Below are positions 6,970 to 24,907 of a stretch of DNA of 64,000 bases, in pieces (within the stretch, counting starts at the first letter, position 1; the number at the start of each line of letters is the position of its first letter). A program made the position numbers and the translations under genes. The notes beneath the pieces are model-generated. The model saw only the letters and a program-made list of their open reading frames with translations, searched no databases and was not told where the DNA came from. Source of the DNA: Anaerolineae bacterium (GTDB lineage Bacteria > Chloroflexota > Anaerolineae > Aggregatilineales > UBA3940); assembly GCA_016926255.1 (NCBI GenBank), contig JAFGOY010000012.1, positions 14,172 through 78,171 on the forward strand, given 5' to 3'.

Positions 6970-7244
6970 TGCCTTTTCTCCTTCATTCTGTTGAAAAATT
7001 ACCTGTAATGCTGTTATTCTATCGCACATCGGTGTTCGCGCGATAGGGGGGCACCGCGATAACAAAAGGGAGGGTCTGGTTTATTGGTTATGGCCAGAAT
7101 ATCCCCCAGTAAATGGGGGGATAGGTGTTTCCTCGCCCTTAGACGAACTTGAACCCGAAACGGCACAAGCCGCCGAAACCCGGGGATAAGAGAATTTGCT
7201 TTTAACATTCCTTGTGCATTCTTTACGGTTTGATTTCCATCGCT

Positions 7245-8612
7245 TCAGACCACGGCGCGGCGGACGTGCCATTCGGTGTGGAGCTGGTGGGCATGGGCGA
7301 CACGCAGCAGCGTCGATGTGTCGCGCCCGACAAGCTGAACGCCAATCGGAAGGCCATCGTCGCTGAAACCGCAGGGCATCGAGAGGGCAGGGAGGCGGCT
7401 CAGGCTGAACGGGTAGGTGAAGCGGAGCAGTTCTGCCGCCGCCGAGACTCCTTCGCTGCCTTCTATTGCGTGGGAGATCACACCGGTGGCCGGGGTAACC
7501 AACACGTCGATCTCGTCGCGGAAGAGGGTGTGGAGCCTGCGAATCCAGGATCGCTCAAACTGGCGGGCGAGGGCATAGTCGGCGGCGCTGCGGGCGGCAC
7601 CCCCTTCGAGACGGGCGCGGACATCGGCACCGAAGCGCTCCGGGGCATTCGCCAGCCGGTCGCGGTGATAGGCGGCAGCATCGCCCATGCTGATCGTCGA
7701 CGCGGCCTGGTACGCCTGCCGGATATCGGGGAGGCTGATGTCAACCTGCGTCATCCGGGCATCGACGGTCAGTACGTCAATCGCGGAGCGCACCGCGCCG
7801 ACCAATTCCAGCGAGAGATCGGCCCAGATCGAATCGTCTTTCGGGACGCCGATACGCAATCCTGCGACCGGCTCGTCGATGGTCTGCGCGTGGGGGATGG
7901 CGGCTTCGATGGTCATTGCGTCGAGCATGAGAGCCACACCTTTGGCAGAATGAGCGAATGGGCCGACGGTATCGAGCGACCAACTCATCGGGATGACGCC
8001 CTGTGTGCTGACCTGCCCCAGCGCGGGACGGAGTCCGGTCAGGCCGCAGAAGGCGGCAGGCAGGCGAACCGATCCGCCGGTGTCGGTGCCGAGCGCACCG
8101 GGGCACATCGCTGCCGCGACCGCCGCTGCCGATCCGCCGCTCGATCCGCCGGGACTGAGGTCGAGATTCCAGGGATTGCGGGCCGGGCCGTAATGGGGGT
8201 TGACGTTCGTCGCGCCGACCGCAAACTCGTGAAGGTTGGTCTTGCCAATGATGATCGCCCCGGCTGCACGAAGCTGCTGGATCACAATTGCATCTTTCCG
8301 GGGGATGTTATCGGAGAAAAACTGGCTCCCTGCGGTGTTTGGGACACCGGCCACATCGATCAGGTCTTTGACGCCAATCGGGATGCCATGGAGCGGCCCC
8401 CAGTCTTCGCCGCGCCCGACTGCCGCCGTTGCCTGCTGCGCTTCCTCACGGGCGGTATCGGCCAGGACGGTGATAAAGGCGTTGATCTTCGGGTTCAGCT
8501 TCTCGATGCGCTCCAGGCTGACCTCGACGACTTCGAGCGGCGTTACTTCCCTTTTGTGGATCAGAGTCGAGATGTCTGCCAGCGATAATTTATCGATCCA
8601 GTCGGTGGTCAT
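7245..8612 (-). CDS. Amidase (amidase-signature family, GatA-like)
   Basis: The amidase signature GGSSGGSAAAVAA and the KDLIDVAG motif are present. I chose the start at ATG 8612 (MTTDWIDKLSLADI..) because of the GGGAGGAG RBS. The 458-aa plus-strand ORF 7212-8588 is an antisense shadow. Confidence 0.85.
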   Translation of the reverse strand: MTTDWIDKLSLADISTLIHKREVTPLEVVEVSLERIEKLNPKINAFITVLADTAREEAQQATAAVGRGEDWGPLHGIPIGVKDLIDVAGVPNTAGSQFFSDNIPRKDAIVIQQLRAAGAIIIGKTNLHEFAVGATNVNPHYGPARNPWNLDLSPGGSSGGSAAAVAAAMCPGALGTDTGGSVRLPAAFCGLTGLRPALGQVSTQGVIPMSWSLDTVGPFAHSAKGVALMLDAMTIEAAIPHAQTIDEPVAGLRIGVPKDDSIWADLSLELVGAVRSAIDVLTVDARMTQVDISLPDIRQAYQAASTISMGDAAAYHRDRLANAPERFGADVRARLEGGAARSAADYALARQFERSWIRRLHTLFRDEIDVLVTPATGVISHAIEGSEGVSAAAELLRFTYPFSLSRLPALSMPCGFSDDGLPIGVQLVGRDTSTLLRVAHAHQLHTEWHVRRAVV

Positions 8613-8751
8613 GGCTCCTCCCGTCGATGTGGTGTACCGGGTCTTTCGTGGTGCGATCTTAATTATACGTGGATTCGGCGGGGAGGATGAATTGTGATAC
8701 TGCTGGATAGTCAGGAAAACATGCAAAAAGCGCGTAGTGACAGGGAGAAGT

Positions 8752-9546
8752 ATGGATAGAGAAGACTATCAACTTATTGACGAGCAGGAGTTTCTGGAAA
8801 GGATGGCTGAGGGGAGGTCTTTCCGAAACATAGTTTTGAGGGATGCCGATCTCACGAAAACTGAAGCTGCCGATCTCACATTCAGGGACTGTGTATTCGA
8901 TGGAGTCGATTTGACAGGAATAAGCTGGATAGGGCTTAAGTGTGAATCTGTGAAGTTTAAATGCTGCGATCTGAGTGATGCCGATCTGGAAGACGCGGTC
9001 TTTGAAAATTGCAGCTTTTTCGATCCAAACCATCCTGAAGGATCAAGAGAATCGCGGCCTATTTATCCCCCAGGCGGTTGTAAATTCCTTCGAGCAAACC
9101 TCCATTCAGCAGCATTTACAAACTGTGATCTGTCCTTCTGTATTTTCGAAGGGGCAAACATGTTCCGTGTCACCATCAAGAATTCTAAAGCGACCTCTGC
9201 CAAATTTCATCGGGCCAGCTTCAACAACTCAGCCAGGCTCATCAATAACGTTATGCATTATGCTGATCTAAGAGGTGCTCAACTGTCAAAGTGCGATGTT
9301 TCCCTGACCGACTTTCAATGGGCAAATCTCGATGAAGCAAATTTTACAGAAGCCGTATTAGTCGGAAGCAACCTGGGCGGGACAACAGTTCGATATGCTA
9401 AATTTGAGAAGGCTGATCTGAGAGGTGCCGGTACAGCATCTTTTGATATTCGTACTATCGACTTACATGGTGCAAAAATATATGAAAGTCAGATGCGAAT
9501 ACTGCTGGAGAACTGCGGACTTGTTATCTTTCCGGACGGTCATTGA
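8752..9546 (+). CDS. Pentapeptide-repeat protein
   Basis: The sequence shows A(D/N)L..-type 5-residue periodicity throughout (ADLTKTEAADLTFRDCVFDGVDLTG..., ANLDEANFTEAVLVGSNLGG...). I prefer ATG 8752 with a GGGAGAAG RBS over the GTG at 8737. GC was about 45-48% in the lines I counted, far below the flanking genes. Confidence 0.8.
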   Translation: MDREDYQLIDEQEFLERMAEGRSFRNIVLRDADLTKTEAADLTFRDCVFDGVDLTGISWIGLKCESVKFKCCDLSDADLEDAVFENCSFFDPNHPEGSRESRPIYPPGGCKFLRANLHSAAFTNCDLSFCIFEGANMFRVTIKNSKATSAKFHRASFNNSARLINNVMHYADLRGAQLSKCDVSLTDFQWANLDEANFTEAVLVGSNLGGTTVRYAKFEKADLRGAGTASFDIRTIDLHGAKIYESQMRILLENCGLVIFPDGH

Positions 9547-11285: not shown

Positions 11286-11358
11286 GCCCCCATCGTCTAG
11301 AGGACCAGGACGCGGCCCTTTCAAGGCTGAAGCAGGAGTTCGAATCTCCTTGGGGGCA
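11286..11358 (+). tRNA. tRNA-Glu: tRNA-Glu (anticodon UUC)
   Basis: The cloverleaf was folded by hand. Acceptor stem is GCCCCCA/TGGGGGC. The anticodon stem is CGGCC/GGCTG with loop CTTTCAA. The T arm is AGGAG-TTCGAAT-CTCCT. Length is 73 nt and no CCA is encoded. Confidence 0.9.
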
Positions 11359-11421
11359 TAGATGATACGAGCCAGTGCCAGTCACTGGCTCGTTTTTATA
11401 ATGGTCATCGGGGCACCCAGA

Positions 11422-12378
11422 ATGAAGACCAACAGCCAACAGACGATCACTTCACACGCTTATCAATGTGACAAAGATGGCGAGCGCATACCGCAGTTTT
11501 TGATCGACACCTACACGTTAACCGGTTACAGCTGGAACTGGGATGTCCGGCGCTGGGCGGGGCATCGTTACTATGGCCATTTCCGTCAATCGTGGCGGCG
11601 CAGTGATTATGTCAGGGTATGGGAAAACAAGGCGGGCGAGATCGTCGGCGTTGTTCACAACGAAGGCGATGTGCCTTATAACCCCTGGGTGGAAATTCAC
11701 CCGGACTACCGTCACCTTGAGGATGAGATGATCGCCTGGGCGGAGTCAGCCTACACCGGGCGCAAAAAGGACGGCAAACGCACCTTAGAGATATTTGTGT
11801 TCGAGGAAGACACACACAGGCAGTCGGTGTTGGCTGATCGGGGCTGGGCAAAAACGGAACATTCAGAAGTTATCCGGCGGATGCCGTATGCGCCGCTTGA
11901 GGAGCCTGTGACTATCCCCGAAGGCTACAAGCTTCGCTCGCTGGTCCCCGGCGAAGCGGACGCGGCAAACTGGGTGACCATCACCAGACGGGTATTTCAA
12001 CCCGATTGTGACCTCACAGCACTTGACTCTGGCCCCTATCGGGTATTTCAGGAAGAATCGCCCTGGTATCAGCACGATCTGCACATCGTCGCCGAAACGC
12101 CCGATGGATCGCTCGCGGCCTTTGCGGGATTCAGCGTCGAACCGACGAACCACATGGCATCGCTTGAGCCTGTCGGCACCCACCCCGATCATCGCCGCCG
12201 GGGACTGGCCTCCGCCGTGATCCGTGAAGGGCTGCGGCGGCTTGCTGCTTACGATGTCGAGGTTGTGTATGTCGGTACCGGGGGCGATATGCTCCCCGCC
12301 AATAAATTGTATGAATCACTCGGATTCACTGATGTGAAGCGGCTGGTCATGTGGACTAAACACCTAGCCAGTTCTTGA
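11422..12378 (+). CDS. GNAT family N-acetyltransferase
   Basis: The C-terminal acetyl-CoA binding motif VGTHPDHRRRGLASAVIREGLRR...NKLYESLGF is present. I moved the start to ATG 11422 because the track start at 11362 lies only 4 nt after the tRNA. The start is uncertain (11401 is also possible). Confidence 0.7.
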   Translation: MKTNSQQTITSHAYQCDKDGERIPQFLIDTYTLTGYSWNWDVRRWAGHRYYGHFRQSWRRSDYVRVWENKAGEIVGVVHNEGDVPYNPWVEIHPDYRHLEDEMIAWAESAYTGRKKDGKRTLEIFVFEEDTHRQSVLADRGWAKTEHSEVIRRMPYAPLEEPVTIPEGYKLRSLVPGEADAANWVTITRRVFQPDCDLTALDSGPYRVFQEESPWYQHDLHIVAETPDGSLAAFAGFSVEPTNHMASLEPVGTHPDHRRRGLASAVIREGLRRLAAYDVEVVYVGTGGDMLPANKLYESLGFTDVKRLVMWTKHLASS

Positions 12379-12409: not shown

Positions 12410-13498
12410 ATGAGAAAACGTCAGTGGATAGTGTTATCAGGATTCCTCTGTTTATGCCTCTTCCTGTCTGCCTGCGCGGGGGGTGAAGAAGTCCCGACGG
12501 CCACGTCAGAGCCGACAAAGACCTCTGAGCCAACGGATGAGCCTAATCCAACGGCCACGCTACAGCCAACAGATGAGCCGCAGCCAGAGTCGGAGATCGA
12601 ATTTCCAGAGAGCGGAACAGCGCTGCTGTCGATCCCGGCGTTGGACGGCAATCAAATCGAGATACGGATCACAAAGCCGGAGGGCGATGGCCCATTCCCG
12701 GCGCTGATCGGCGTGGCCGGTGGGGATGGCAGTTTTGCGTTTTATTCGAACATCATGGCCGATGGGTTGAAAGGGATGGGGATCGTCGCGGTCGATTTCG
12801 CCCCGGAGGGCCGCTTGAACAGCGAAGGCGAGGACGATCACCACGGGCCGGTACATCAGGATGATCTGAAAGCACTGGTCGATTTCGTCAGCGAGCAGCC
12901 CTTCGTCCAACCGGACAATATTGGGATACTCACTTACTCGTACGGGCTGATCATGGCAACCGGAGCGCTGTCACGCTACCCGGATATGCCGGTCGCGTTC
13001 CTGATCGACTGGGAGGGGCCTTCCTCTCCCGGCAGGGACATCATGCGCGGGGTGGAGAACGAGGAACCCTGGGCGATAGAGACGATCCTGACCCTCAGCG
13101 TCAGAACTGATATGAGCCGCGAAGAAATGGAAGCCTTCGTGATCCACGGGGGCATGATCTCCGATGAGGCGTACTGGGCAGATCGAGACGCGTCCCTGTT
13201 CATCAAAGACCTGCCCTGCCCATATCTCCGGGTGCAGTTCGATGAGGATCACGTTCAGGGCACGTATAAAACGCACATGATGCTGGTGATCAACGCGGCG
13301 ACGGAGTACAGTGACCAGTGGACGCGTTTGAATGATAATCCGCCGAACGTCATTTATACCGAAGAAAACCTCGCCGATGTGCACTTCCACACCTACGACG
13401 AGGGCGAATTCCGGCCAATGACCGTCTTACCGACGGCGGATGAGGTTCTGCTGGCTTACGTCGACGAGATGTTCTTCACAAGGCCCTATGAAGAATAA
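12410..13498 (+). CDS. Lipoprotein, alpha/beta-hydrolase-like
   Basis: Lipobox signal MRKRQWIVLSGFLCLCLFLSACAG, then a PT/E-rich linker, then a possible nucleophile elbow ILTYSYGL. The fold assignment is tentative. Confidence 0.6.
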   Translation: MRKRQWIVLSGFLCLCLFLSACAGGEEVPTATSEPTKTSEPTDEPNPTATLQPTDEPQPESEIEFPESGTALLSIPALDGNQIEIRITKPEGDGPFPALIGVAGGDGSFAFYSNIMADGLKGMGIVAVDFAPEGRLNSEGEDDHHGPVHQDDLKALVDFVSEQPFVQPDNIGILTYSYGLIMATGALSRYPDMPVAFLIDWEGPSSPGRDIMRGVENEEPWAIETILTLSVRTDMSREEMEAFVIHGGMISDEAYWADRDASLFIKDLPCPYLRVQFDEDHVQGTYKTHMMLVINAATEYSDQWTRLNDNPPNVIYTEENLADVHFHTYDEGEFRPMTVLPTADEVLLAYVDEMFFTRPYEE

Positions 13499-13501
13499 CG
13501 C

Positions 13502-14803
13502 CTAGCCGTTTTTCGCCGACAACTGTGACAGGATGGTGGCCTGCTTGTTCTCGATATCGAAGCAGGCCATCTGATTCTCTCGCATCAGGCAGGTGGCGAT
13601 CTGGATCGCCTCGGCTTCGCAGAATGTCCCCTCCTCGACTTCGGCGGACAGGGCGCGGGTCAGCCCGTCGCGGGCCTGCGCCGCGTAGCCGACCACCTGC
13701 GCGGGCCAGAAGGTATCGCCGCCGAAGGCAAACAGCTTGTTGTAGGGCACAGCGTGGATCATCTGCCGCACGAAATCGACCGCCGCGCGGAAGTTCAATG
13801 CCCATCCCCAGCACATATCGACGTAGACATTCGGGAAGTTCTTCGCCATGCCGACCAGTTCATCGGTATAAGGGTAAGCCATGTGCATCAGCACGAAGCG
13901 GGTGTCGGGATAGCGGGCGAGGATCGTCCCCAGGTTCCCCGATTGCAGGCGGAAGGGATCGGTCATCGTGCTGTTGAAGGCCATGATCCCGGTATGAATC
14001 TTGAACGGCAGGTTGTGCTCGGCGGCCAGTTCGACGCCCCGCGCCCAGCACCAATCCCCCAGGCACAGGCGCTCCGCCGCGTCGATCTCGTCGCCGCGCA
14101 GCACCTTCTGCAAGACGGGTTCGACATCGGCATCGTCCCGCTCGACCCAGGCCAGTGTCCGGTCGTAGGCATGCTGGGCCTTGACCGCGACCGCGCAGCC
14201 GCCGTATTTTTCAAACAGGGCGGCCATCGCCTGTCGCAGACTGGCCGTATCGCGCACCTCAACCTGTGTCTCTTCGTATAATTGCTTCAGGTCAGGCTGA
14301 CCGCTGCAAAATTCGACCCACGAAATATCGTAGAGGAAGAATTCAGGCCCCGACAAATCCGGCTCGCAGGCCCATGCGTGATGGTTGATCTGGACGTGAT
14401 CGAGATTTGCCACCTCGCGGAGCAGTCGCAGCCGCTCGCCGGGCTGACGTAACTGCTTGTTGCGCTCCGCTGCGGTGAGTATCGAGTCGAGGGTGATCTC
14501 CTCGATGCCATAGACCAGCCGGGCGGTGATCCGTGCCGCCTGCCCGTAGCTCGTGAACCGGCAGTATTCCCACGCGTCCTTGATACAGTTCCAGCGCCCT
14601 TCGACGTCCGGGTCGGATGAGTCGATCACGCGGTCGGCGACATCTTTCGAGACACGGGAGGTGATCAGATCGAGGCCGATGTAGGTGTGGAAGATGCTCT
14701 GAAGCACATCGGGGCCGTCTTTGACGTATTCAGCTTCCGATAAAAGATGCTCGTGTGTATCGACCAGCGGGGTGATCTTGATATGGTGGGCAAGGTCGGT
14801 CAT
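13502..14803 (-). CDS. Amidohydrolase-family metal-dependent hydrolase (TIM-barrel, Amidohydro_2-like)
   Basis: N-terminal motif ITPLVDTHEHLL, with later H and D residues typical of the family. The start is set at ATG 14803 (AGGAGA RBS), 13 nt after the upstream stop. Its stop lies only 3 nt from the convergent stop at 13498. Confidence 0.7.
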   Translation of the reverse strand: MTDLAHHIKITPLVDTHEHLLSEAEYVKDGPDVLQSIFHTYIGLDLITSRVSKDVADRVIDSSDPDVEGRWNCIKDAWEYCRFTSYGQAARITARLVYGIEEITLDSILTAAERNKQLRQPGERLRLLREVANLDHVQINHHAWACEPDLSGPEFFLYDISWVEFCSGQPDLKQLYEETQVEVRDTASLRQAMAALFEKYGGCAVAVKAQHAYDRTLAWVERDDADVEPVLQKVLRGDEIDAAERLCLGDWCWARGVELAAEHNLPFKIHTGIMAFNSTMTDPFRLQSGNLGTILARYPDTRFVLMHMAYPYTDELVGMAKNFPNVYVDMCWGWALNFRAAVDFVRQMIHAVPYNKLFAFGGDTFWPAQVVGYAAQARDGLTRALSAEVEEGTFCEAEAIQIATCLMRENQMACFDIENKQATILSQLSAKNG

Positions 14804-14816
14804 GGGGTTTCTCCTG

Positions 14817-15266
14817 TCAGACCAGATGTATGATCGTATTGCATCGATCATCCCCCAGCAGGAACGCCTCGGTGATGGTCACCTCGACGGGCTGGCCCAG
14901 CAGCATCCCGAACAGTTCCTGCTGAAAGTTCTTGCAGCAATAATAGCACAATGACTGCGGCGGTTGGGAACAATCGGCGAAGGCACAGGCGCACTCCTCT
15001 ACCACTTTCCCGGTCAGGGTAAGCACGGAGCGTTCCGCGTTGAATTCCAGCCGCTCCCAGTATTTCGATGCCTTCTCGACGTTGATCCAATCCAGAAACG
15101 CCTGAACGTTCCCCACGTATTGACCAACCCATTCGTCGAGTTTGCGCGTGTAGAAACAGTCGTGGCCTAATTGGGTAAAGATGCTCTGTTTGACCGGTTC
15201 GCTCTGCGTCTCGTCGATGAACTTGAGGATGCTCTTTACCTGTTCCGGGTTCATGTCCTGCGGCAT
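14817..15266 (-). CDS. Small Cys-rich protein of unknown function (149 aa)
   Basis: Cysteine cluster EECACAFADCSQPPQSLCYYCCKNF...GDDRCNTIIHL suggests metal or Fe-S binding. It is translationally packed between the GT and amidohydrolase genes. I cannot name the family with confidence. Confidence 0.6.
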   Translation of the reverse strand: MPQDMNPEQVKSILKFIDETQSEPVKQSIFTQLGHDCFYTRKLDEWVGQYVGNVQAFLDWINVEKASKYWERLEFNAERSVLTLTGKVVEECACAFADCSQPPQSLCYYCCKNFQQELFGMLLGQPVEVTITEAFLLGDDRCNTIIHLV

Positions 15267-15270
15267 AAAC

Positions 15271-16518
15271 TTACCCTTTTGCCTCTTCCAGCTTTTTCAA
15301 TACTATTGCTGCTGCTTGTCTTCTTCCACCCAGTTCTCGGATTTCCCGGCTGTATTTTTCCAGGTTTGTGTGAAAGGGTTTCCGATCAAGTAGTTCCTGG
15401 CAGCAGGACAGTATTTTGCCAGCTGTGAAGTCATCACTACTGAGATTGTATGCGCAGCCGATCTCCGCGGCCTTTTTTGCATTGTAATGACGCTCAAAGT
15501 TCTCGCCGGGGAAAATGAGTGCCGGAACCATCGACTCGATGCACTGGAGCGTCGTGTTTTGCCCGCCGTGGTGAATGGCAATATCGGCCTGTTTCATGAC
15601 CTCATCCGATGGGAGATACTGAAAAAAGTGAACATTGCCGATCTGGTATTCGCCTTTCTTCTCGAAATACGGATGTCCCGCGCCGGAGAAGACGACATCA
15701 AAATCCGATTCTGCAAATGCGCCGGTCAGCACTTTTTCGGCAAGCTGTGGCGTGATCTGCCCTATACTGAGATAAACATAGATCAGTGGGCGGTGTTTGT
15801 CCCAATCCCAGGATCGATCTGCGAATTTTTCAGGAACGATACTCCCGACAAAGTGATTCCTGTCGTTGGCCGGGACATCTTCCATCGCCGGGATAGAGGG
15901 AATGAGCCGTTCCGAATGGTCATATCCCCCAAAGAGATCAAGTATATTTGATACTTCTGGCAGCTTCAGACGTCGAAGCAGGCGGTTATAAGGCCGGTAG
16001 AGCCGTCTGGTTGAATGGGGCCGGTTGTAGAAAAGCTCGGAATAATAAGATGGCCTTCCCACAGAGCTAAAGGTCGTCAGAAGCGCGATCCCATATTTTC
16101 TTGCGACAATCGGCGCAACCAGATCGAATTCACTCACAATGACGTCCGGTTTGAATGATCGGACAAGTTCTTCCCATTCCTGATAAGTCTGCTCAACATA
16201 TGCCTTCGTACAGATGCCTTTTAACCGGATGATGCTCTCCATGCCTTTGACTGGGGGCACGGTCCCATCCCATTCTCCTTGCACCATGCCCATGAACTTC
16301 CATACCCAGCCGGGCAGACCATACATAGTGGGCTTATAGCCGGTTACACAGGCGTAATTGTGATCTACAACGTGTTCGGCTTCAGAGCCAGCCGCGCGGA
16401 AAAGAATATCGGTATCCGGTGCGATTTTTCGAAGTTCGTCGGCAATGGCAATCATCCGTGTTACGGTGCCCAGTGCTTCGACCGCATTGATGCCGACCGA
16501 GAATAAAACGCGATGCAT
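15271..16518 (-). CDS. GT1 family glycosyltransferase (UDP-glycosyltransferase/MGT-like)
   Basis: C-terminal nucleotide-sugar motif HHGGQNTTLQCIESMVPALIFPGENFERHYNAKK is present. The start is set at ATG 16518 (MHRVLFSVG.., GGGGAGG RBS). GC was about 43% in the line I counted, against 60-73% in the other operon genes. Confidence 0.8.
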   Translation of the reverse strand: MHRVLFSVGINAVEALGTVTRMIAIADELRKIAPDTDILFRAAGSEAEHVVDHNYACVTGYKPTMYGLPGWVWKFMGMVQGEWDGTVPPVKGMESIIRLKGICTKAYVEQTYQEWEELVRSFKPDVIVSEFDLVAPIVARKYGIALLTTFSSVGRPSYYSELFYNRPHSTRRLYRPYNRLLRRLKLPEVSNILDLFGGYDHSERLIPSIPAMEDVPANDRNHFVGSIVPEKFADRSWDWDKHRPLIYVYLSIGQITPQLAEKVLTGAFAESDFDVVFSGAGHPYFEKKGEYQIGNVHFFQYLPSDEVMKQADIAIHHGGQNTTLQCIESMVPALIFPGENFERHYNAKKAAEIGCAYNLSSDDFTAGKILSCCQELLDRKPFHTNLEKYSREIRELGGRRQAAAIVLKKLEEAKG

Positions 16519-16523
16519 GTTCG

Positions 16524-17006
16524 TTAAGCCTCCCCTATCACCTGTTCGACGATCTCCAGCGGCATCGATGTCCATTCGGCGACGGCGGCGGCATCCATGC
16601 CCTGGGCATGATACCGCAGGATGGTCGCCGATATCGGCTCGCCCACCTCGACGACATGCCCATCCGGGTCATGGACGCGGAATACCCGCTGACCCCAGGG
16701 CTGCTCGCGGATCGGGTGGACAATATCTACTTGTGCACCCGATAACTGTCGCAGTACGCTGTCAATATCGGTTGACTCGAAATACAGTTCGAGGTTTTTT
16801 CGCCCCAGGGGTGCATCCGATTCTGGCGCACGCTGATAGACCATTTCGTATGCGTGGTTGACATCCCAGATGGAGAGTCCGCCTTCGAACTCGACGTTTT
16901 CACCGTGATCCATCGTGACTTTCTGGCCGAGCAGACCCTCATAGAAAGCGCGTGACGCGTCGATATCCTGCACAAAAATAACCGCCACTTTGAATTTGAC
17001 TGGCAT
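16524..17006 (-). CDS. VOC (glyoxalase/bleomycin-resistance/dioxygenase) family protein
   Basis: Typical beta-alpha-beta-beta-beta module pattern: VAVIFVQDIDASRAFYEGLLG...FRVHDPDGHVVEVGEP. 160 aa. Confidence 0.75.
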   Translation of the reverse strand: MPVKFKVAVIFVQDIDASRAFYEGLLGQKVTMDHGENVEFEGGLSIWDVNHAYEMVYQRAPESDAPLGRKNLELYFESTDIDSVLRQLSGAQVDIVHPIREQPWGQRVFRVHDPDGHVVEVGEPISATILRYHAQGMDAAAVAEWTSMPLEIVEQVIGEA

Positions 17007-17009
17007 TGT

Positions 17010-18260
17010 TTACTCCTGCCTTTCCACAGCTCCGATATCACATCCCGCGCCTTGAGGACGAGGATAACCGTATTGATCGAGACTGTCGGCGCATTCGCTG
17101 GTCGGTACAGCATCGAGGGCCGGGCTGCCATCAAGCGGAATATGTCCGCCATCAGCGAGTGAGCCTAATCCGCAGGGCTGATTGGCGATGTCCGTGTCGT
17201 CAAGAGAAAGGTTTCCAGCAGCACCGATCAAATTATATCCAAGGGAGATAAACGGTTCCTCCTGATTTCCCTCGATGAGGATGTCGGTGGCTGACTGGGC
17301 ACTGTTTCCTGCGATGATCGATTGTTGAAGGGTGACGCTGCCGTCAGTCCAGATACCACCCCCGCGTCCGGCAGTATTGTTAGTGATAGTGCAGGTGACG
17401 ATCTCCACGTTTCCACCCACAGCAGCGATAGCCCCGCCCCCACGCGCGGATCGATTGCCACTGAAGGTTGATGCAGCCGCCGTCAGGGTGGCATCGGTCA
17501 GACATAGCGCCCCTCCCCCGTGGACGGTCACCTCGTTAGCGACGAAGGCGCTGTTCTCCACCTGAAGCTCGCCCGCGTCGATGTAGATCGCCGCCCCGCA
17601 GCCAACCGAAGTGTTTTCGACAAAGGTGGTTTCAAGAATATCGATCCAGCTGCCGTGTGACGAAATCGCGCCGCCGTTGAATACCGCCGCATTACCCCGG
17701 AATTCGCCAGCGGTGATCTCTATCGATCCTGCCTGCGTGCCGATGGCCCCGCCCTCGGTTTCAGTTTGGTTGTTGTAAAAGTACCCATCGTAGACGGAGA
17801 TGCGGCCCTCTTCGGTATAAATCGCCGGGCTGTGGTTGTTGTGATAGGCGTTCTGGATGGTGAGAGAGTCAAGCTTGATATCGGTATTTTGGCTGAAAAA
17901 GACGGCATACTGCCCTCCACCATCGATGACTGCATTGTTGCCAGAGATATCGATGTCAGTGTTGAGGGACGGAAGATCGGCGGTGAGGTGGTAGGTGCAA
18001 TCTGGCGTAAGAACGATCTCACCCCCGGCGGCGACGGCTTCTCGGAGAGCGGATTCGGTGCAGTCGATAGATGGCACTTCGGTTGGCGGCGGGTTGGTGG
18101 GGATCGGCGTTGCTGTTGGCGGCTGGACGGTCGGTGATTCTTGTATCGATGGTGTTGGTGGGATAGCAGTAGCATCGACCGGAGCGCACGCAGTGATGGT
18201 CATAACAGCGACAACGGCAATCAAGCTCCTGATAGCTTTTATGCGATGGCGACAGCGCAT
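17010..18260 (-). CDS. Lipoprotein with right-handed beta-helix (GGAI-type PMP repeats) and a choice-of-anchor-Q-like C-terminus
   Basis: Start at ATG 18260 (MRCRHRIKAIRSLIAVVAVMTITACAP lipobox). Repeated GGAI/GGGAL/GGGI turns are present. The C-terminal motif is LDQYGYPRPQGAGCDIGAVE. Confidence 0.75.
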   Translation of the reverse strand: MRCRHRIKAIRSLIAVVAVMTITACAPVDATAIPPTPSIQESPTVQPPTATPIPTNPPPTEVPSIDCTESALREAVAAGGEIVLTPDCTYHLTADLPSLNTDIDISGNNAVIDGGGQYAVFFSQNTDIKLDSLTIQNAYHNNHSPAIYTEEGRISVYDGYFYNNQTETEGGAIGTQAGSIEITAGEFRGNAAVFNGGAISSHGSWIDILETTFVENTSVGCGAAIYIDAGELQVENSAFVANEVTVHGGGALCLTDATLTAAASTFSGNRSARGGGAIAAVGGNVEIVTCTITNNTAGRGGGIWTDGSVTLQQSIIAGNSAQSATDILIEGNQEEPFISLGYNLIGAAGNLSLDDTDIANQPCGLGSLADGGHIPLDGSPALDAVPTSECADSLDQYGYPRPQGAGCDIGAVERQE

Positions 18261-18485
18261 AGAGACTTCCTGTACCCATATGCTGTGGATCAACGGAACA
18301 TCGACCAGTGGGCAGTATAAAACAGAGCGGACAGGTTGGGCAACAATCTTTGTACCGCGGGTAGCGACAATGGGACTCGTTGATTGATATACTCAAACGA
18401 ACGGCAGCTGGTTTATTGGAAGGAACCGCGATGACAATCAAGCCCAGAGCAGCGGTGGCGTCCTGACTCGTGGAAAGGTATCCTG

Positions 18486-19037
18486 ATGGAATTGTCAGCA
18501 GAACAACGTGAAGAACTGCTCGGAACATTGAAAGCCCGTTTCGAGAAAAATATGAACCGCCATCAAGGCCTTGAATGGGCCAGCGTACAGGCAAAGCTGG
18601 AAGCTAATCCCGAAAAACTGTGGTCACTCAATGAAATGGAAGGCACCGGCGGCGAGCCGGATGTGGTCGGCTATGATCAACAGACAGGCGAGTTCATTTT
18701 TATTGATTGTTCGGCGGAAAGCCCGGCAGGTCGCAGAAGTGTTTGTTACGACCGCGAAGCGCTGGAAGCACGGAAAGAGCACAAACCGGAAAATAACGCA
18801 GTCGATATGGTCGCCGCTATGGGCATCGAGCTTTTATCGGAAGAACAATATCGAGAACTGCAAAAACTCGGCGAATTTGATACGAAAACATCGAGCTGGG
18901 TGAAAACACCCCCCGATATTCGAAAACTCGACGGTGCCCTCTTTTGTGATCGTCGCTACGGCCATGTCTTCGTGTATCACAACAGTGCGTCTTCTTACTA
19001 TGCCGCCAGGGGGTTCCGTGGCTCGCTAAGGGTCTAA
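18486..19037 (+). CDS. DUF4256-like protein (183 aa)
   Basis: The N-terminal pattern LSAEQREELLGTLKARFEKNMNRH.GLEW..V.AKLEANPEKLWSLNEMEGTGGEPDVVG matches my memory of the DUF4256 family. GC is lower than in the neighbours. Confidence 0.6.
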   Translation: MELSAEQREELLGTLKARFEKNMNRHQGLEWASVQAKLEANPEKLWSLNEMEGTGGEPDVVGYDQQTGEFIFIDCSAESPAGRRSVCYDREALEARKEHKPENNAVDMVAAMGIELLSEEQYRELQKLGEFDTKTSSWVKTPPDIRKLDGALFCDRRYGHVFVYHNSASSYYAARGFRGSLRV

Positions 19038-19353: not shown

Positions 19354-19638
19354 ATGCAACACGAACCTGCACCACAGGAACTCGGAGAGGACCGTGCCGC
19401 AGAATACAAGGCACGGAATGGGCTGATCCTGTTCGGGGTCTACAGCCTGATCTATCTTGGATTCGTCCTGATCAACCTGATAAGTCCTGGCCTGATGGCA
19501 AAAGAGGTCATCGGCGGGGTCAACCTAGCCGTCGTCTACGGCTTCGGGCTGATCCTCCTGGCGATCATCATGGGGGTCATTTACAACGCCATGTGTACCA
19601 GGGCAGAAGATCAAATGAACGGGGGAACAGCCGAATGA
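19354..19638 (+). CDS. DUF485 inner-membrane protein (YjcH-like partner of ActP)
   Basis: 94 aa with two hydrophobic helices and a GGAGGAG RBS. Its stop overlaps the actP start (ATGA), the classic yjcH-actP arrangement. Confidence 0.8.
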   Translation: MQHEPAPQELGEDRAAEYKARNGLILFGVYSLIYLGFVLINLISPGLMAKEVIGGVNLAVVYGFGLILLAIIMGVIYNAMCTRAEDQMNGGTAE

Positions 19639-21569
19639 TTTACAATGCATCACCTCTGGCAATCGGGATATTCGTCGTATTCGTGCTGCTGGTACTGGGG
19701 ATCTCGTTCTATTTTGCGGGTCGAACCAAAAGCGCATCAGGCTATTTCGCCGCCGGTGGAAAAATCCACTGGGGGGTGAACGGGATCGCCTTTGCCGGTG
19801 ACTATCTCTCGGCGGCCTCGTTCCTCGGCATCTGCGGGATGATCGCAGTCGACGGCTACGACGGCTTCCTGTATTCAATCGGCTACCTGGCCGGGTGGAT
19901 CGTGGCGCTGTTCGTTGTGGCGGAACCGCTCAAGCGGCTGGGCAAATACACGCTCTCTGATGCGTTGGACGCTAAGTTCAACTCGAAGGGCATCCAGTTG
20001 ATGGCCGGTATCAGCGCGCTGATCGTCTCGATCTGCTATCTGATCCCGCAGATGGTTGGCGCGGGGGCACTCGTGACGCCGCTGCTGGGCCTGCCACACT
20101 GGATCGGCGTGGCGATGGTGGGAGGGATCGTGATCACCATCGTGGCAACGGCAGGGATGGCCTCGACGACCTACGTGCAGTTCCTTAAGGGCGGCCTGCT
20201 GATCATCTTCTCGACGATTGTCACCGTGCTGGTCGTCCGCAACGGACTGTCGCTCAAACCTTCTGAGACCTACCACGACTTTCAGGCTATTTCGGCGGTA
20301 GTCGAGGCGGGCGAAGTGGTCGAGATCTCCAACCCGGACTACAGCATCGCCGGGCAGTATGAAGCAAACGGGATGCAGTTCGTCAAGCTGGAGCAGGACG
20401 GCGTGTTCACGTGGTGGAGCCTGGGCGAGATCGACGGGCAGCCGGTGCTGAATGAGGCCCCATCCGCTATTCCCGCCGACAAAATCTACAACGGCGAACC
20501 CCAGGCTGACGGCGCATTCTACCAGGTTGGGCATCCGAGCCGGATTATCCTGGATGGGAAGGAAGTCGCATCGACCGGGCCACTGGGACCCTTCAAGTTC
20601 CTGGCGACTGTGCAGAACAGCGACATCGTGCGCTTCACCAAGGTGACGATCAACGACGGAGACGACAAGGTATCGGTCTGGTACCAGAACGTGACGCCTG
20701 GCGAGCAGATCATGCGCCCCGGCCTGCACTTCAAGGTGGCCGAGGGATCGACGTGGATCAGTAAGCTGGACTTCTCATCGCTGATGCTGGCGCTGTTCTT
20801 CGGGACGTCGGCGCTGCCGCACATCCTGATCCGGTATTACACGGTTCCCAGCCAGCGTGACGCCCGCAAATCGACCATCGTGGCGATTGCGGCGATCGGG
20901 TTCTTCTACATCCTGACCCTGTTCATGGGGCTGGGGGCGATGGTCAACGGCGTGCTCGACCTGGAAAGCAGCAACATGTCCGCGCCGCTGCTGGCGCAAA
21001 CCTTTGGAACGGCGCTGTTCGCCTTCATCTCGGCGATTGCCTTTGCGACGGTGCTGGGCACGGTCAGCGGGCTGATCGTCGCCGCATCGGGTGCGGTGGC
21101 CCACGACCTGATGGACAACTTCTTCGGGATCAAGATGGAAGAAAAGGGCAAGGTGCGGGCCGGGAAGATCGCGGCGATTGTGGTTGGCGGGATCGCGATC
21201 ATCCTCGGCATGCTGTTCAAGGGAATGAACGTCTCGTTCCTGGTAGGGCTGGCCTTTGCGGTCGCTGCATCGGCGAACCTGCCCGCGATTCTGATGCTGC
21301 TGTTCTGGAAAAAGACAACCGCCAAGGGGATCGCGGCTTCGATACTGGTGGGGATGATCTCGGCACTGATGCTGATCCTGCTCTCGCCGGCGATGTTCGA
21401 ACGCTACGGGCTGCCGGGATCGGCAGTGTTCCCGCTCGACAATCCGGGTATCGTCTCGATACCGCTGAGCTTCGTGACGCTGATCGTCGTCTCGCTGCTG
21501 ACACAGCCGGAAGCAACAGAGGAAGCGCCCCCCATTGTGGAAGCGTCGATGACGGCTGCCGACCGGTAG
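19635..21569 (+). CDS. actP: Cation/acetate symporter ActP (sodium:solute symporter family) with an enlarged extramembrane loop
   Basis: Start at ATG 19635 (MIYNASPLAIGIFVV). SSF motifs are present: GGKIHWGVNGIAFAGDYLSAASFLG and GTSALPHILIRYYTV. Length is 644 aa, compared with ~550 aa for typical ActP. Confidence 0.85.
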   Translation: MIYNASPLAIGIFVVFVLLVLGISFYFAGRTKSASGYFAAGGKIHWGVNGIAFAGDYLSAASFLGICGMIAVDGYDGFLYSIGYLAGWIVALFVVAEPLKRLGKYTLSDALDAKFNSKGIQLMAGISALIVSICYLIPQMVGAGALVTPLLGLPHWIGVAMVGGIVITIVATAGMASTTYVQFLKGGLLIIFSTIVTVLVVRNGLSLKPSETYHDFQAISAVVEAGEVVEISNPDYSIAGQYEANGMQFVKLEQDGVFTWWSLGEIDGQPVLNEAPSAIPADKIYNGEPQADGAFYQVGHPSRIILDGKEVASTGPLGPFKFLATVQNSDIVRFTKVTINDGDDKVSVWYQNVTPGEQIMRPGLHFKVAEGSTWISKLDFSSLMLALFFGTSALPHILIRYYTVPSQRDARKSTIVAIAAIGFFYILTLFMGLGAMVNGVLDLESSNMSAPLLAQTFGTALFAFISAIAFATVLGTVSGLIVAASGAVAHDLMDNFFGIKMEEKGKVRAGKIAAIVVGGIAIILGMLFKGMNVSFLVGLAFAVAASANLPAILMLLFWKKTTAKGIAASILVGMISALMLILLSPAMFERYGLPGSAVFPLDNPGIVSIPLSFVTLIVVSLLTQPEATEEAPPIVEASMTAADR

Positions 21570-22033: not shown

Positions 22034-23977
22034 ATGCTGGGCCGGGTGATTCTGATCACAGTGATGATGGCCGGACTGTTTCCCGCTGCGGAAATGGGAA
22101 TGCAGGAGACAGTCCCGCGATTCGAGCCGGGCGAGTGCCCGGAGCCGCTGGCCGGTCTGGACGGCGTCGAGTGCGGACAGTTGATCGTGCCGGAGAACCG
22201 GGACGGCCCGGAGAGCCGGTCGATCAGCCTGACGGTGGCGATCTTCCGGGCGCGGAGCGAGAACCCGGCCCCTGACCCGGTGATCTACCTGGAGGGCGGG
22301 CCGGGCGGCAGCGCTATCGATTATGGACGATGGGCGGCGATCAGCCCGATCCGCGAACAGCGCGACCTGATTCTCTACGAGCAGCGCGGCAACCGGTATG
22401 CCGATCCCTGGCTGGACTGCCCGGAAATCTCCGAGGCTTTCATCGACAACATGGAGCGTGGGCTAAGTCCGGCGGAAGAAGCGCCGACAGAACTGGCTGC
22501 CGCCGAAGCATGCCGGGATCGATTCCTGGCGGAGGGCGTCGACCTGAGCGGGTATACGAGCGCGGAAAGCGCGGCGGACGTCGCCGACCTGGGTCGAGTG
22601 CTGGGCTACGAGGAATGGAACCTGTACGGGGTTTCTTATGGGACCCGGCTGGGGCTGACCGTGCTGCGCGATCACCCGGAAGGGGTGCGCAGCGTGATCC
22701 TGGATTCGGTGTACCCGCCGGAGGCGTCAAGCTGGGCGATGCTGACTGCCAATGCCGCGTGGCTGTTCGACAGGGTATTCGATGACTGCGCCGCCGACAC
22801 GGAATGCACGGCGACCTACCCGGAACTGGAAGCGCACTTCTACGCCGTGCTGGATCGGGCAAACGCCGAGCCGATCACAATCGAGGGCATCGAGCAGCCG
22901 CGCACGTTTCGATTAACCGGCCCGGATATTGTGGGTGGGCTGGCACAGGGGATGTACGATCCCGACTTCACGGCGATCACCCCGCTTCTGATCGAGGAAC
23001 TGTACCGGGGCAGTGACACCGTGCTCGTGCCGCTGGTCGATATGCTGGCGGATCGATTGGGCGATATCAGCATGGGAGCATATCTATCCATCGAGTGCTA
23101 CGAACGCTACCCATTCGAGCCGCCGGAGGTGATCGCGGCAGCGGCGGCGGATTATCCGCCCCAACTGCACGATCCGCTGTTCACGCGGGTGGAATGGTGC
23201 GAAGCCTGGGAGACGGAGCCGGTCGACCCGGTGGAACACGAGCCGGTGTCGAGCGATGTGCCGGTGCTTCTCCTGAGCGGCGCGGTCGATCCGATCACGC
23301 CGCCGCGTGACGCGGCTCAGGCTGCGGAGATGCTCAGCAGCGGGTATTGGTACGAATTCCCCGGCGAAGGCCACGCGGTATCTTTTGGGGGGTGCCCTCA
23401 GCAGATGATGCTCGCTTTCCTGGACGATCCGGGCGCGGCACCGGATTCAGGCTGTCTTTCAGAGATGGATACCGTCGAGTTTGTCAGCGATATTTACACG
23501 ACAACCGCATTCTACCGGTTGAACGTCGATCTGCTGTCACGGCGTCCGCTGGGCTGGTTCGGGCTGCTTGGGTTCTGCCTCCTGTTTTTCCTGGCGGAGA
23601 TTCTGATGCGGCTGGTCGGGCTGGTGTTCCGGCGCGGCAGGAACGATCCGCGAGGCGCGCAGGCCGCGCATATCGTATCGGGCAGCATGGCGGCGGTGAA
23701 CCTGGGCTTTCTGACCGGGCTGATACTTGCGATCCGGCAGGCGACGGCATCGAACTGGCTGATCCTGGCGCTGGGCATCCCGGCGAAATGGGCGTGGGTG
23801 CTGTATCTGCCGGTGCTGTCGGGCGCGGCAGGGATCGGGATGGCATACTTCGTATACCGGGCGATCCGCGAGGGATATTGGAATCGAGTCTGGCGGATTC
23901 ATTACATCCTGGCGACGGCTGCGGCACTGGCCTTCACACTGTTCTGCGTCTACTGGGGGCTGGTTCGATTGCTTTAG
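22034..23977 (+). CDS. Secreted alpha/beta hydrolase (S33 tripeptidyl-aminopeptidase-like) with a C-terminal multi-TM anchor
   Basis: Oxyanion motif GGPGGSAI and nucleophile elbow YGVSYGTRLG are present. There are four hydrophobic helices in the last ~170 aa. Confidence 0.75.
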   Translation: MLGRVILITVMMAGLFPAAEMGMQETVPRFEPGECPEPLAGLDGVECGQLIVPENRDGPESRSISLTVAIFRARSENPAPDPVIYLEGGPGGSAIDYGRWAAISPIREQRDLILYEQRGNRYADPWLDCPEISEAFIDNMERGLSPAEEAPTELAAAEACRDRFLAEGVDLSGYTSAESAADVADLGRVLGYEEWNLYGVSYGTRLGLTVLRDHPEGVRSVILDSVYPPEASSWAMLTANAAWLFDRVFDDCAADTECTATYPELEAHFYAVLDRANAEPITIEGIEQPRTFRLTGPDIVGGLAQGMYDPDFTAITPLLIEELYRGSDTVLVPLVDMLADRLGDISMGAYLSIECYERYPFEPPEVIAAAAADYPPQLHDPLFTRVEWCEAWETEPVDPVEHEPVSSDVPVLLLSGAVDPITPPRDAAQAAEMLSSGYWYEFPGEGHAVSFGGCPQQMMLAFLDDPGAAPDSGCLSEMDTVEFVSDIYTTTAFYRLNVDLLSRRPLGWFGLLGFCLLFFLAEILMRLVGLVFRRGRNDPRGAQAAHIVSGSMAAVNLGFLTGLILAIRQATASNWLILALGIPAKWAWVLYLPVLSGAAGIGMAYFVYRAIREGYWNRVWRIHYILATAAALAFTLFCVYWGLVRLL

Positions 23978-24001
23978 GTCATCGGCGAATTTCACGAATT
24001 G

Positions 24002-24026
24002 GGGCGACCGGGTGGTCGCCTTTTTG
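24002..24026 (+). terminator. Rho-independent terminator (GGCGACC-GGGT-GGTCGCC-TTTTT)
   Basis: Read directly, 25 nt after the stop at 23977. Confidence 0.75.
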
Positions 24027-24197
24027 ATGATGGTGATCTTTTAAAAGGGGCATGTTAGTGGATTTGGAGTTAAACTGCCGTAGTTGCATACGGGGGCGTC
24101 TCGCTGCCGCCTGCAACAGATCGCCCGGACACGCGTATAGGGTTATGACTTTGTGACCGGTTTGTGCTGTTGACTGTGGTAGTGAGAAGAGGATCAA

Positions 24198-24791
24198 ATG
24201 TATACTGAGAAATCTGCTGTCACACCGATGAAAGTGTGTGAGAAGCAGGAACGACAGTGGCCGGGAACCGTTATGCTGGTACTGAGTGTTATCGCTACTT
24301 CTGTGCTGGCAATCTACATGGCAAAGAACATCGACGAACTGGCAACATTTATCACCGCCATTGGGGTCATCGGGCCGCTGGTGAGCATTTCGCTGCATAC
24401 GCTGCTGGGCGCGTCGCCGATTCCGACCGAAACGCTGACTGCGATCAACGGGATCGTGTTTGGCCCGGCAGCAGGCACGTTCTACAGCTGGATCGGTTAC
24501 ATGCTGGCCTCGTTCGTCGAGTATTTCATCGGGGTGAAGATCGGGAATATAGCAGACTTCGAATCGGAGCGCGACAAGATGCCGTTCGGGTTGGGCCGCC
24601 TTCCTGCCGATTCGCCCTGGTTCCTGATCCTGGGGCGGGTCGTTCCTTTTGGCGGGGCAAAAGTGGTGGGAGTTGTCGGGGGTGTATACCGGGTATCGCT
24701 GTGGCGCTTCACCTGGACGGCGGCGCTGGCGACCGGTGCGGGGGCGCTGATTTTCGCCTATGGTGGGTCTATGCTCAAGGGGCTGTTTTAG
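24198..24791 (+). CDS. TVP38/TMEM64 (DedA-related, VTT domain) membrane protein
   Basis: 197 aa, multi-TM, with the pattern LLGASPIPTETLTAINGIVFGP..GT.YSWIG typical of the family. Confidence 0.65.
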   Translation: MYTEKSAVTPMKVCEKQERQWPGTVMLVLSVIATSVLAIYMAKNIDELATFITAIGVIGPLVSISLHTLLGASPIPTETLTAINGIVFGPAAGTFYSWIGYMLASFVEYFIGVKIGNIADFESERDKMPFGLGRLPADSPWFLILGRVVPFGGAKVVGVVGGVYRVSLWRFTWTAALATGAGALIFAYGGSMLKGLF

Positions 24792-24907
24792 GGCGGTGGG
24801 GCGATCATAAAGGTGGGCGATAGGTAACCGCAAGGATCGCCCTGCGAGATGAAATCAGGATTTGTGATCGATCTGGTAAAGTGTTGAAAGATCAGGCCTA
24901 AAAAGTA

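Follow-up and report, generated by a model that had tools for sequence, protein, structure and literature searches.

Packing and putative expression signals of a five-gene string

We analyzed a 64,000-nt stretch of the genome of an Anaerolineae bacterium (GCA_016926255.1, contig JAFGOY010000012.1, positions 14,172-78,171), which is referred to as the window and whose positions serve as coordinates throughout. Between positions 18260 and 13502, the list of open reading frames (ORFs) and a reading of the reverse strand revealed a string of five minus-strand genes. The genes encode, in this order, a 416-aa secreted lipoprotein with a parallel beta-helix (gene 1, 17010-18260), a 160-aa VOC protein (gene 2, 16524-17006), a 415-aa GT1 (GT-B) glycosyltransferase (GT; gene 3, 15271-16518), a 149-aa Cys-rich protein (gene 4, 14817-15266), and a 433-aa TIM-barrel protein of the amidohydrolase superfamily (gene 5, 13502-14803). 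An initial annotation, made from the sequence, had read the string as a coherent operon with a recently acquired, compositionally foreign GT. Its family assignments were correct at the superfamily level (Chlam_PMP beta-helix, Glyoxalase_2 VOC, YjiC/OleD-like GT1, and Amidohydro_2).

The five genes are separated by gaps of 3 nt (17007-17009), 5 nt (16519-16523), 4 nt (15267-15270), and 13 nt (14804-14816), and coordinates and spacing were exactly as initially annotated. Alignments with homologues placed the start of the GT gene at 16518 (N-terminus MHRVLFSVGINA) and that of the amidohydrolase gene at 14803 (N-terminus MTDLAHHI), and they did not support the longer, mechanically listed ORFs of these two genes. 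Every start is preceded by a purine-rich, Shine-Dalgarno (SD)-like motif that overlaps the end of the preceding gene, e.g. AGGAG 6 nt before the ATG of the VOC gene, AGGAG 7 nt before the ATG of the amidohydrolase gene, and GGGGAGG before the GT start. The proposed operon-like packing, with room for translational coupling, was thus borne out by the gaps and the SD motifs. As judged by eye from some ORF pairs, not from a systematic count, the four successive gaps of at most 13 nt form the tightest co-directional run in the window.

Terminators would not fit into gaps of only 3-13 nt, and a terminator scan detected no convincing minus-strand hairpin inside the string or between the convergent stop codons at its end. 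There, the stop codon of gene 5 at 13502 is separated by only 3 nt (13499-13501) from the stop codon at 13498 of a plus-strand gene for a 362-aa S15-like lipoprotein (12410-13498). This close, terminator-free convergence had been described before and was confirmed by both the sequence reading and the scan. Because four consecutive gaps of at most 13 nt occur without terminator-like structures, read-through transcription is the default expectation, and the five genes are probably transcribed together.

A consensus scan yielded a promoter-like site (TTGCCC-18-TATACT, 9 of 12 matches) at 18314-18343 on the minus strand, about 55 nt upstream of gene 1. The site is located in a 225-nt divergent intergenic region that gene 1 has in common with a DUF4256 gene. 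The scan is weak: it returned nine sites in the region compared with 5.0 +/- 2.4 expected from shuffled sequences, and Chloroflexota promoters are outside its coverage. With the same scan, a second promoter-like site was found inside the GT gene (16451-16424). Such an internal site would be in accord with an alternative explanation, according to which the genes have no functional relation and do not all share one transcript, deletions that followed a series of insertions drew them close together, and their promoters reside within the coding sequence upstream. However, the internal match is no better than the shuffled background, and the succession of four short gaps without terminator-like structures favors read-through.

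Riboswitches or leader RNAs were not detected with Rfam between 13.5 and 18.5 kb; the only matches in the whole window were two tRNAs. A search for mobile-element boundaries or attC-like cassette repeats around the genes gave short, chance-level matches only. A reading of the string as an anti-phage defence system was dropped, as none of the five proteins matched a PADLOC model at E values up to 0.001.

Distribution and history of the five genes

Conservation of the string was analyzed by comparing all five proteins, using tblastn, with 116 loci around relatives of the Cys-rich protein, the GT, the VOC protein, and the amidohydrolase. The five-gene order was absent from every other sampled locus, and no locus contained three or more of the five genes, with the limit that none of the loci had been fetched from relatives of the beta-helix protein. 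About 70 loci with a relative of the Cys-rich protein, the GT, the VOC protein, or the amidohydrolase were devoid of the remaining partners. The combination of GT and Cys-rich genes was found only in loci of a sister species (L001-L003 and L008). In the 27 genome loci with a homologue of the Cys-rich gene, which represent at least seven phyla and include L008, no VOC, amidohydrolase, or beta-helix gene was present within 8 kb. The family of gene 5 is very large, with more than 1,600 matches, the best 120 of which have identities of 55-69%. It occurs alone in hundreds of genomes, and the homologue loci showed contexts unrelated to the string, in which sugar-acid genes did not adjoin it. For gene 2, 16 near-full-length homologues were retrieved from metagenome loci (35-59% identity), none of which adjoined the other four genes. 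The partners of GT orthologues in other Anaerolineae and in Clostridium vary from locus to locus and include TetR (L039-L041), PadR (Clostridium beijerinckii, L043), a nitroreductase together with a protein of glycoside hydrolase (GH) family GH3 (L042), an ABC-2 exporter encoded 2 nt downstream (L115), RraA together with an aminotransferase (L113), and a second GT. A 138-aa ORF following the GT orthologue in L039 was ruled out as a relative of the Cys-rich protein (hhalign probability 0.1%).

The sister species is represented by an Anaerolineae genome that is about 85% identical, and the comparison covers its locus L001 (GCA_964560705.1); the arrangement is the same in L002, L003, and L008. 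According to blastn, L001 and the window consist of collinear blocks with identities of 83-89% that break exactly at gene boundaries. One block comprises the GT and Cys-rich genes (L001 6711-8451, window 16518-14816), one the convergent S15-like gene (L001 8464-9557, window 13500-12407), and one a DedA/VTT gene (L001 5412-6035, window 24797-24177). Of the string, only the GT and Cys-rich genes are present in the sister locus, and the amidohydrolase, VOC, and beta-helix genes are absent. The S15-like gene adjoins the Cys-rich gene of the sister with a gap of 15 nt, and gene 5 is a clean indel of the size of a single gene. From the start of the GT gene to the DedA gene, the window contains about 7.6 kb that the sister lacks. 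This segment holds the VOC and beta-helix genes and, on the plus strand, the DUF4256 gene (18486-19037, E = 2e-93), a DUF485 and SSF symporter pair in an ActP-like arrangement (19354-21569), and a gene for a 647-aa alpha/beta hydrolase (22034-23977).

Two scars were found in the sister locus. The first is a 37-nt sequence between the GT and Cys-rich genes (L001 7946-7982) that is 92% identical to window positions 16550-16514. In the window, these positions make up the minus-strand junction of the VOC and GT genes (16514-16550), i.e. the 3' end of the VOC gene with its stop codon TAA, the sequence CGAAC, and the ATGCA of the GT start. The 37-nt scar begins at a CTGGAG microhomology common to the 3' ends of the GT and VOC genes. 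The second scar (L001 6301-6363, also present in L002, L003, and L008) is a duplication of codons 1-23 of the Cys-rich gene together with about 12 nt of upstream sequence. This remnant is situated about 350 nt upstream of the sister GT gene, and the sequence after it contains the short palindromes ccacctatggtgg and ccactacctatggtagtgg. Remnant and palindromes point to a past rearrangement or insertion. The 37-nt scar, which sits in a locus devoid of a VOC gene, shows that a VOC-to-GT junction existed in the ancestry of the sister, and we infer from it that the VOC-GT-Cys-rich arrangement predates the split and that the VOC gene was later lost from the sister. A history in which the CTGGAG microhomology seeded a tandem duplication and deletions came afterwards was considered and not retained, as no single simple model explains both scars.

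The sister comparison revealed a second variable spot outside the string. Homology reaches precisely as far as the 3' end of the plus-strand tRNA gene at 11286-11358, and a plus-strand gene for a 338-aa GNAT protein with a weak MshD-like match (11362-12378) starts 4 nt after the tRNA in the window, whereas an unrelated 115-aa ORF is found in the sister.

The GC content of the whole genes is 50.4% for the GT, 54.4% for the Cys-rich protein, 56.3% for the VOC protein, 57.1% for the beta-helix protein, and 60.9% for the amidohydrolase. At third codon positions (GC3), the value of the GT is 0.543, compared with a mean of 0.706 (sd 0.095) for the 38 genes of the window, which corresponds to z = -1.7. 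A pentapeptide-repeat gene (0.42) and the DUF4256 gene (0.51) have lower values, and an ORF at 23979-24833 (0.55) is about equal. The codon-usage typicality of the GT (z = -1.16) is the seventh lowest of the 38, and the beta-helix gene deviates to the same degree (z = -1.28). The Cys-rich and amidohydrolase genes (z = +1.4 for the latter) are the two most host-typical genes of the window. The view of the GT as compositionally foreign can therefore be upheld only in part. The heterogeneity within the string is real and the GT is on its GC-poor side, but its GC content is 50.4% for the whole gene rather than the 43% initially counted in one line, that of the Cys-rich, VOC, and amidohydrolase genes is 54-61% rather than 60-73%, and in the full GC and codon analysis, which the initial annotation had called for, the GT was not an outlier. 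In composition, no gene of the window deviates more than the pentapeptide-repeat gene (8737-9546, plus strand; GC 45%, codon z = -2.9), which looks more foreign than the GT.

The sister GT is 85% identical to that of the window, and its GC3 is 0.496 compared with 0.70-0.82 for its flanks; the flanking genes are 85-96% identical. More distant GT orthologues match the composition of their own genomes. Because the sister contains a GT with the same low-GC bias, acquisition of the GT predates the split, and the initial claim of a recent acquisition was not supported. The data fit a transfer in which a donor of lower GC content supplied this GT before the window and sister lineages separated. Judged from these comparisons, the string is a mosaic, and what has varied recently is the set of amidohydrolase, VOC, and beta-helix genes, not the GT. 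The indels at exact gene boundaries and the mixed codon usage within the string would also be expected if unrelated genes had been compacted by deletions. Weighed against the packing described above, we regard this explanation as unlikely.

The distribution also bears on the interpretation of the initial annotation, a coherent new pathway of five steps in which an antibiotic-like molecule is modified or sequestered. In such a pathway, the VOC protein would bind the compound, the GT would glycosylate it, the Cys-rich protein and the amidohydrolase would process the product, and the beta-helix protein would act at the surface. The very close packing at all four junctions, together with the SD motifs, is in favor of a pathway. 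However, the combination is repeated at no other sampled locus, which the annotation itself had listed as an argument against its proposal, the GT and Cys-rich genes stand alone in the sister locus, and the amidohydrolase is a clean single-gene indel whose family is found alone in hundreds of genomes. A coherent pathway was therefore not borne out, and the properties of the single proteins, which are described in the following, bear on it as well.

The VOC protein, the GT, the beta-helix protein, and the amidohydrolase

Gene 2 passes the Pfam family Glyoxalase_2 (PF12681) with 122.8 bits, compared with a threshold of 30.1 (E = 9.4e-36, 117 of 118 profile positions). Its relatives in the PDB are Atu1872 (2qnt, E = 5e-29) and a Clostridium difficile protein (4nvs, E = 9e-26, full length), both of which are uncharacterised. 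More distant PDB relatives are the mitomycin-binding protein MRD (E = 1e-6), TioX, and BlmB. The protein resembles drug-binding VOC proteins such as MRD and the bleomycin-binding domain of BlmB in its Glyoxalase_2 match and in the detectable similarity to MRD, TioX, and BlmB. In contrast to these, it has a C-terminal extension of about 35 aa, and its nearest solved relatives are the two uncharacterised proteins. It is not a member of the curated antibiotic-binding VOC subfamily ble_BLMA (NF033156), for which it scored 16.5 bits compared with a cutoff of 140.

The C-terminal domains of the GT pass the Pfam families EryCIII-like_C (43.3 bits, cutoff 31.7, E = 4.6e-11) and Glyco_tran_28_C (36 bits, cutoff 22), and the motif HHGGQNT for nucleotide-sugar binding is invariant in 14 homologues, which places the protein in GT1 with a GT-B fold. 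The initial assignment to the MGT type could not be maintained. The score for the MGT family TIGR01426 is 89.8 bits, far below the cutoff of 260, and is confined to residues 209-411, and the score for NF033129 is 33.9 compared with a cutoff of 700. The best PDB match, YjiC (6kqx, E = 7e-17), comprises residues 114-406 only; further solved relatives are CalG1 and OleD/OleI. In YjiC and OleD, the N-terminal catalytic histidine is expected in a G-H-V-x-P loop. The corresponding loop of the window GT reads GINAVEALGTVTR in the homologue alignment and is devoid of the GHV histidine. In the subfamily of the GT, the loop GI(N/S)AVEALG(T/S)(V/I)TR is invariant, with the columns G9...A15-L16-G17..T20-R21 and without a histidine, and E14 is a candidate for the catalytic base. 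The GT is thus similar to GT1 enzymes of the YjiC/OleD/OleI type (MGT) in its GT-B fold and the HHGGQNT motif, and its orthologues are often located beside TetR, PadR, or ABC exporter genes, a setting typical of detoxifying GTs. It differs from them in that the alignment is limited to its C-terminal half, another loop takes the place of the GHV histidine motif, and it belongs to a subfamily of its own. In our search, this subfamily was confined to Anaerolineae, a few Bacillota, and Clostridium (C. beijerinckii, C. butyricum, and C. saccharoperbutylacetonicum).

A low-molecular-weight thiol pathway (bacillithiol or mycothiol) was considered in view of FosB-like VOC matches and the nearby gene for the MshD-like GNAT protein. 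BshA and MshA are glycosyltransferases of family GT4. The window GT belongs to GT1, the hydrolase is not of the LmbE type, and the matches are far below the cutoffs, and this pathway was rejected.

Gene 1 matches the Pfam family Chlam_PMP with 41.2 bits (cutoff 20.6), and its C-terminus matches the NCBIfam choice-of-anchor Q domain (choice_anch_Q) with 46.9 bits (cutoff 25). It contains GGAI/PMP repeats, and an N-terminal lipoprotein signal peptide with the lipobox ITAC (...VMTITAC; MRCRHRIKAIRSLIAVVAVMTITAC) was read from the sequence. A PDB sequence search did not yield a relative, and neither Pfam nor NCBIfam revealed a lyase or hydrolase family or another enzymatic domain. Gene 1 thus resembles the chlamydial PMP-repeat and choice-of-anchor Q surface proteins in its GGAI-type PMP repeats, its C-terminal anchor domain, and its N-terminal lipoprotein signal, but it is not an autotransporter and has no detectable enzymatic domain.

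Gene 5 passes the Pfam family Amidohydro_2 (PF04909) with 59.1 bits, compared with a threshold of 26.4 (E = 8e-16). Near the N-terminus it carries the HxH metal motif (DTHEHL), whose histidines, H17 and H19, do not vary among 30 homologues, and a late aspartate, D363, is invariant as well. The AlphaFold2 (AF2) model has a pLDDT of 93.3, and a Foldseek search with it retrieved an uncharacterised Planctomyces protein (4i6v, TM 0.81, E = 3e-18) as well as four uronate isomerases (1j5s, 2q01, 2pnk, and 3iac, TM 0.64-0.77). A match to a uronate-isomerase family was not found in Pfam up to an E value of 0.01 or in NCBIfam, and the identity to the structures is 12-18%, or 12-17% for the uronate isomerases. 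Gene 5 would thus be similar to the uronate isomerase (UxaC) branch and 4i6v in its whole-chain fold (TM0064 and the Caulobacter, BH0493, and Salmonella enzymes), the HxH motif, and D363. It differs in its low identity, its Pfam family, which is Amidohydro_2, and the lack of hexuronate-pathway neighbors at the homologue loci. Because of the fold matches of the model, the protein may better be called uronate-isomerase-like than an amide hydrolase, and the notion of a hydrolase that processes a glycosylated aglycone found no support. In two Anaerolineaceae loci (L037 and L038), a 56% identical homologue of gene 5 (6001-7293) is located among resistance-like genes, namely those for Adenyl_transf, MFS, two acetyltransferases, and an APH phosphotransferase, which may be coincidence.

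Taken together, the kinship of the VOC protein with mitomycin- and bleomycin-binding proteins, that of the GT with YjiC and OleD, and the TetR, PadR, and ABC exporter genes beside GT orthologues would be in agreement with a five-step pathway. In contrast, the predicted fold of gene 5 is that of a sugar-acid isomerase rather than that of a deglycosylating or amide-cleaving hydrolase. Together with the distribution of the genes, this makes the five-step pathway improbable.

The Cys-rich protein and the nature of the string

The product of gene 4 is identical to an NCBI entry with the locus tag JXJ17_04580. It belongs to a family of 186 homologues of about 154 aa, the best 120 of which are 65-85% identical. 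Copies in genome loci with identities of 62-72% are present in other Chloroflexota, Bacteroidota, Spirochaetota, Acidobacteriota, and KSB1, Oscillospiraceae have a copy with 55% identity, and copies with identities of 36-48% occur in Ignavibacteriota and other Bacteroidota. Seven cysteines are invariant in the family alignment (C37, C92, C94, C107, C110, C111, and C142).

On its own, gene 4 did not match any Pfam or NCBIfam family, none of 29 close family members matched the Pfam family DUF6144 (PF19641, threshold 28.8 bits) even at E values up to 10, and a comparison of the family profile with PDB sequences gave noise only (E above 0.6). The AF2 model (pLDDT 84.9) has an alpha/beta fold, and its best Foldseek matches are TRAPP Bet3, BcsD, and, from MopR, PoxR, and DmpR, the phenol-sensor domains that contain V4R, all with moderate TM scores of about 0.5. 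An exhaustive profile search that started from the gene 4 family reached distant proteins of about 185 aa, several of which score on DUF6144, e.g. P0243 with 53 bits and P0151 with 29.9 bits; P0243 is fused to a histidine kinase and a receiver domain. An hhalign comparison of the gene 4 family with the DUF6144-like set resulted in a probability of 99.9% (E = 2.4e-35, 182 columns), which places gene 4 in the same superfamily, and C37, C92, C94, C107, C110/C111, and C142 align with the six invariant cysteines of the DUF6144-like set. Gene 4 thus encodes a divergent DUF6144/V4R-like protein, presumably with a Bet3 fold. It resembles DUF6144-like proteins in full-length profile homology and six Cys positions, and with the V4R/Bet3 proteins (MopR/DmpR/PoxR, MsvR, TRAPP Bet3, and BcsD) it may share the fold, as indicated by the matches to Bet3, BcsD, and the phenol-sensor domains. 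The differences are a CC doublet, a seventh invariant cysteine, Pfam scores below threshold, and an unusually high conservation across phyla (62-72% identity), and the fold likeness to V4R is moderate only.

Many of the distant relatives (P0121, P0130, P0134, P0151, P0153, P0181, and others) have the N-terminal sequence M-x-R-[RK]-x-F-[LV]-K followed by C-x3-G-x-C-x-C, which looks like a twin-arginine translocation (TAT)-type, possibly lipoprotein, signal. The gene 4 protein lacks a TAT-like extension and is presumably cytoplasmic. The TAT-like signals of the relatives imply export of a pre-folded, cofactor-loaded protein, and the family would thus fold around a cofactor. V4R domains are described as small-molecule-binding modules related to Bet3 (PMC2253512), and in MsvR, conserved cysteines of the V4R domain modulate redox-sensitive DNA binding (PMC3729527). 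The gene 4 protein probably binds a metal or iron-sulfur (Fe-S) cofactor and a small ligand.

GH8 genes are present within two genes of gene 4 homologues in Bacteroidota, KSB1, and Spirochaetota (L013 6119-7543, L019 8387-10669, and L012 9562-10779; the gene 4 homologue is located at about 7800-8450 in each of the three loci). The GH8 proteins of L013 and L019 are 66% identical to one another, whereas that of L012 is only 27% identical to them, which indicates an independent association. Genes for GH3, GH39, GH43, GH127, and SASA esterases also recur in the neighborhood of gene 4 homologues.

These neighbors are part of a further alternative, namely that the string is a carbohydrate module. 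The beta-helix protein would act on or bind a polysaccharide, gene 5 and the GT would act on sugars or sugar acids, and the Cys-rich protein would be a partner that binds a glycan or another ligand. Many polysaccharide lyases and hydrolases are built on parallel beta-helices, the predicted fold of gene 5 is nearest to uronate isomerases, gene 4 homologues adjoin GH8, GH3, GH39, GH43, GH127, and SASA esterase genes, and the fold of the Cys-rich protein also resembles BcsD, a glucan-chain-binding subunit of cellulose synthase. However, the beta-helix protein matches only PMP repeats and an anchor-associated domain, gene 5 is absent from the sister locus and is not found beside sugar-acid genes elsewhere, GH neighbors are fairly likely by chance in genomes rich in carbohydrate-active enzymes, and the likeness to BcsD is at the level of the general V4R/Bet3 fold. 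A carbohydrate module is thus distinctly unlikely.

A more restricted proposal concerns gene 4 itself. It might stand for a branch of the V4R/DUF6144 proteins that binds a cofactor, has not been described before, and serves as a ligand- or redox-sensing or carrier partner of sugar-modifying enzymes. The seven cysteines would hold an Fe-S cluster or zinc; the proposal also draws on the TAT-like signals of the distant relatives, the conservation across phyla, and the recurrence beside genes for glycan-active enzymes, GH8 in three phyla and GT1 in the window. GT and Cys-rich protein would then be the true functional unit of the locus. This proposal is tentative and, at present, rather doubtful.

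The explanation that we favor, and hold to be reasonably likely, is that the five genes are a lineage-specific, most likely co-transcribed string of individually mobile accessory genes and do not encode a conserved pathway. Transcription would start upstream of 18260, within the divergent region of 225 nt, and read through all five genes, and translation would be coupled at the junctions. The VOC-GT-Cys-rich part would be the oldest, and the common ancestor with the sister would have possessed both the VOC-to-GT junction and the GT-Cys-rich pair. Judging from family resemblance and from the companions of the GT elsewhere, the VOC protein and the GT may act together on a small molecule that is toxic or foreign, by binding and glycosylating it, and the Cys-rich protein may bind a ligand as well as a cofactor. 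The beta-helix lipoprotein and the uronate-isomerase-like enzyme would be co-expressed passengers rather than obligate partners.

Several points weigh against this explanation. Co-transcription was deduced from the spacing only. The role in xenobiotic modification rests on family resemblance, and the GT is no bona fide MGT and 2qnt and 4nvs are uncharacterised. The sampling was incomplete; it covered loci around relatives of four of the five proteins and, for the sister, the locus itself, and many of the contigs from metagenomes are short. In addition, the tight packing and the retained SD motifs at four junctions could reflect selection for a real, young pathway.

As a five-gene operon, the string is of little importance, being an ordinary young arrangement of known superfamilies. 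It does show that tight operon-like runs in Chloroflexota can be young patchworks, and therefore spacing alone should not be read as evidence for a pathway. The analysis had two by-products, one of which is a GT1 subfamily without the canonical catalytic histidine that is common to Anaerolineae and Clostridium. The other is the small, strongly conserved, uncharacterised DUF6144/V4R-like family of Cys-rich proteins, with TAT-signal variants and repeated GH8 neighbors. This family is the only unusual part of the string and its sole element that is worth experimental work.

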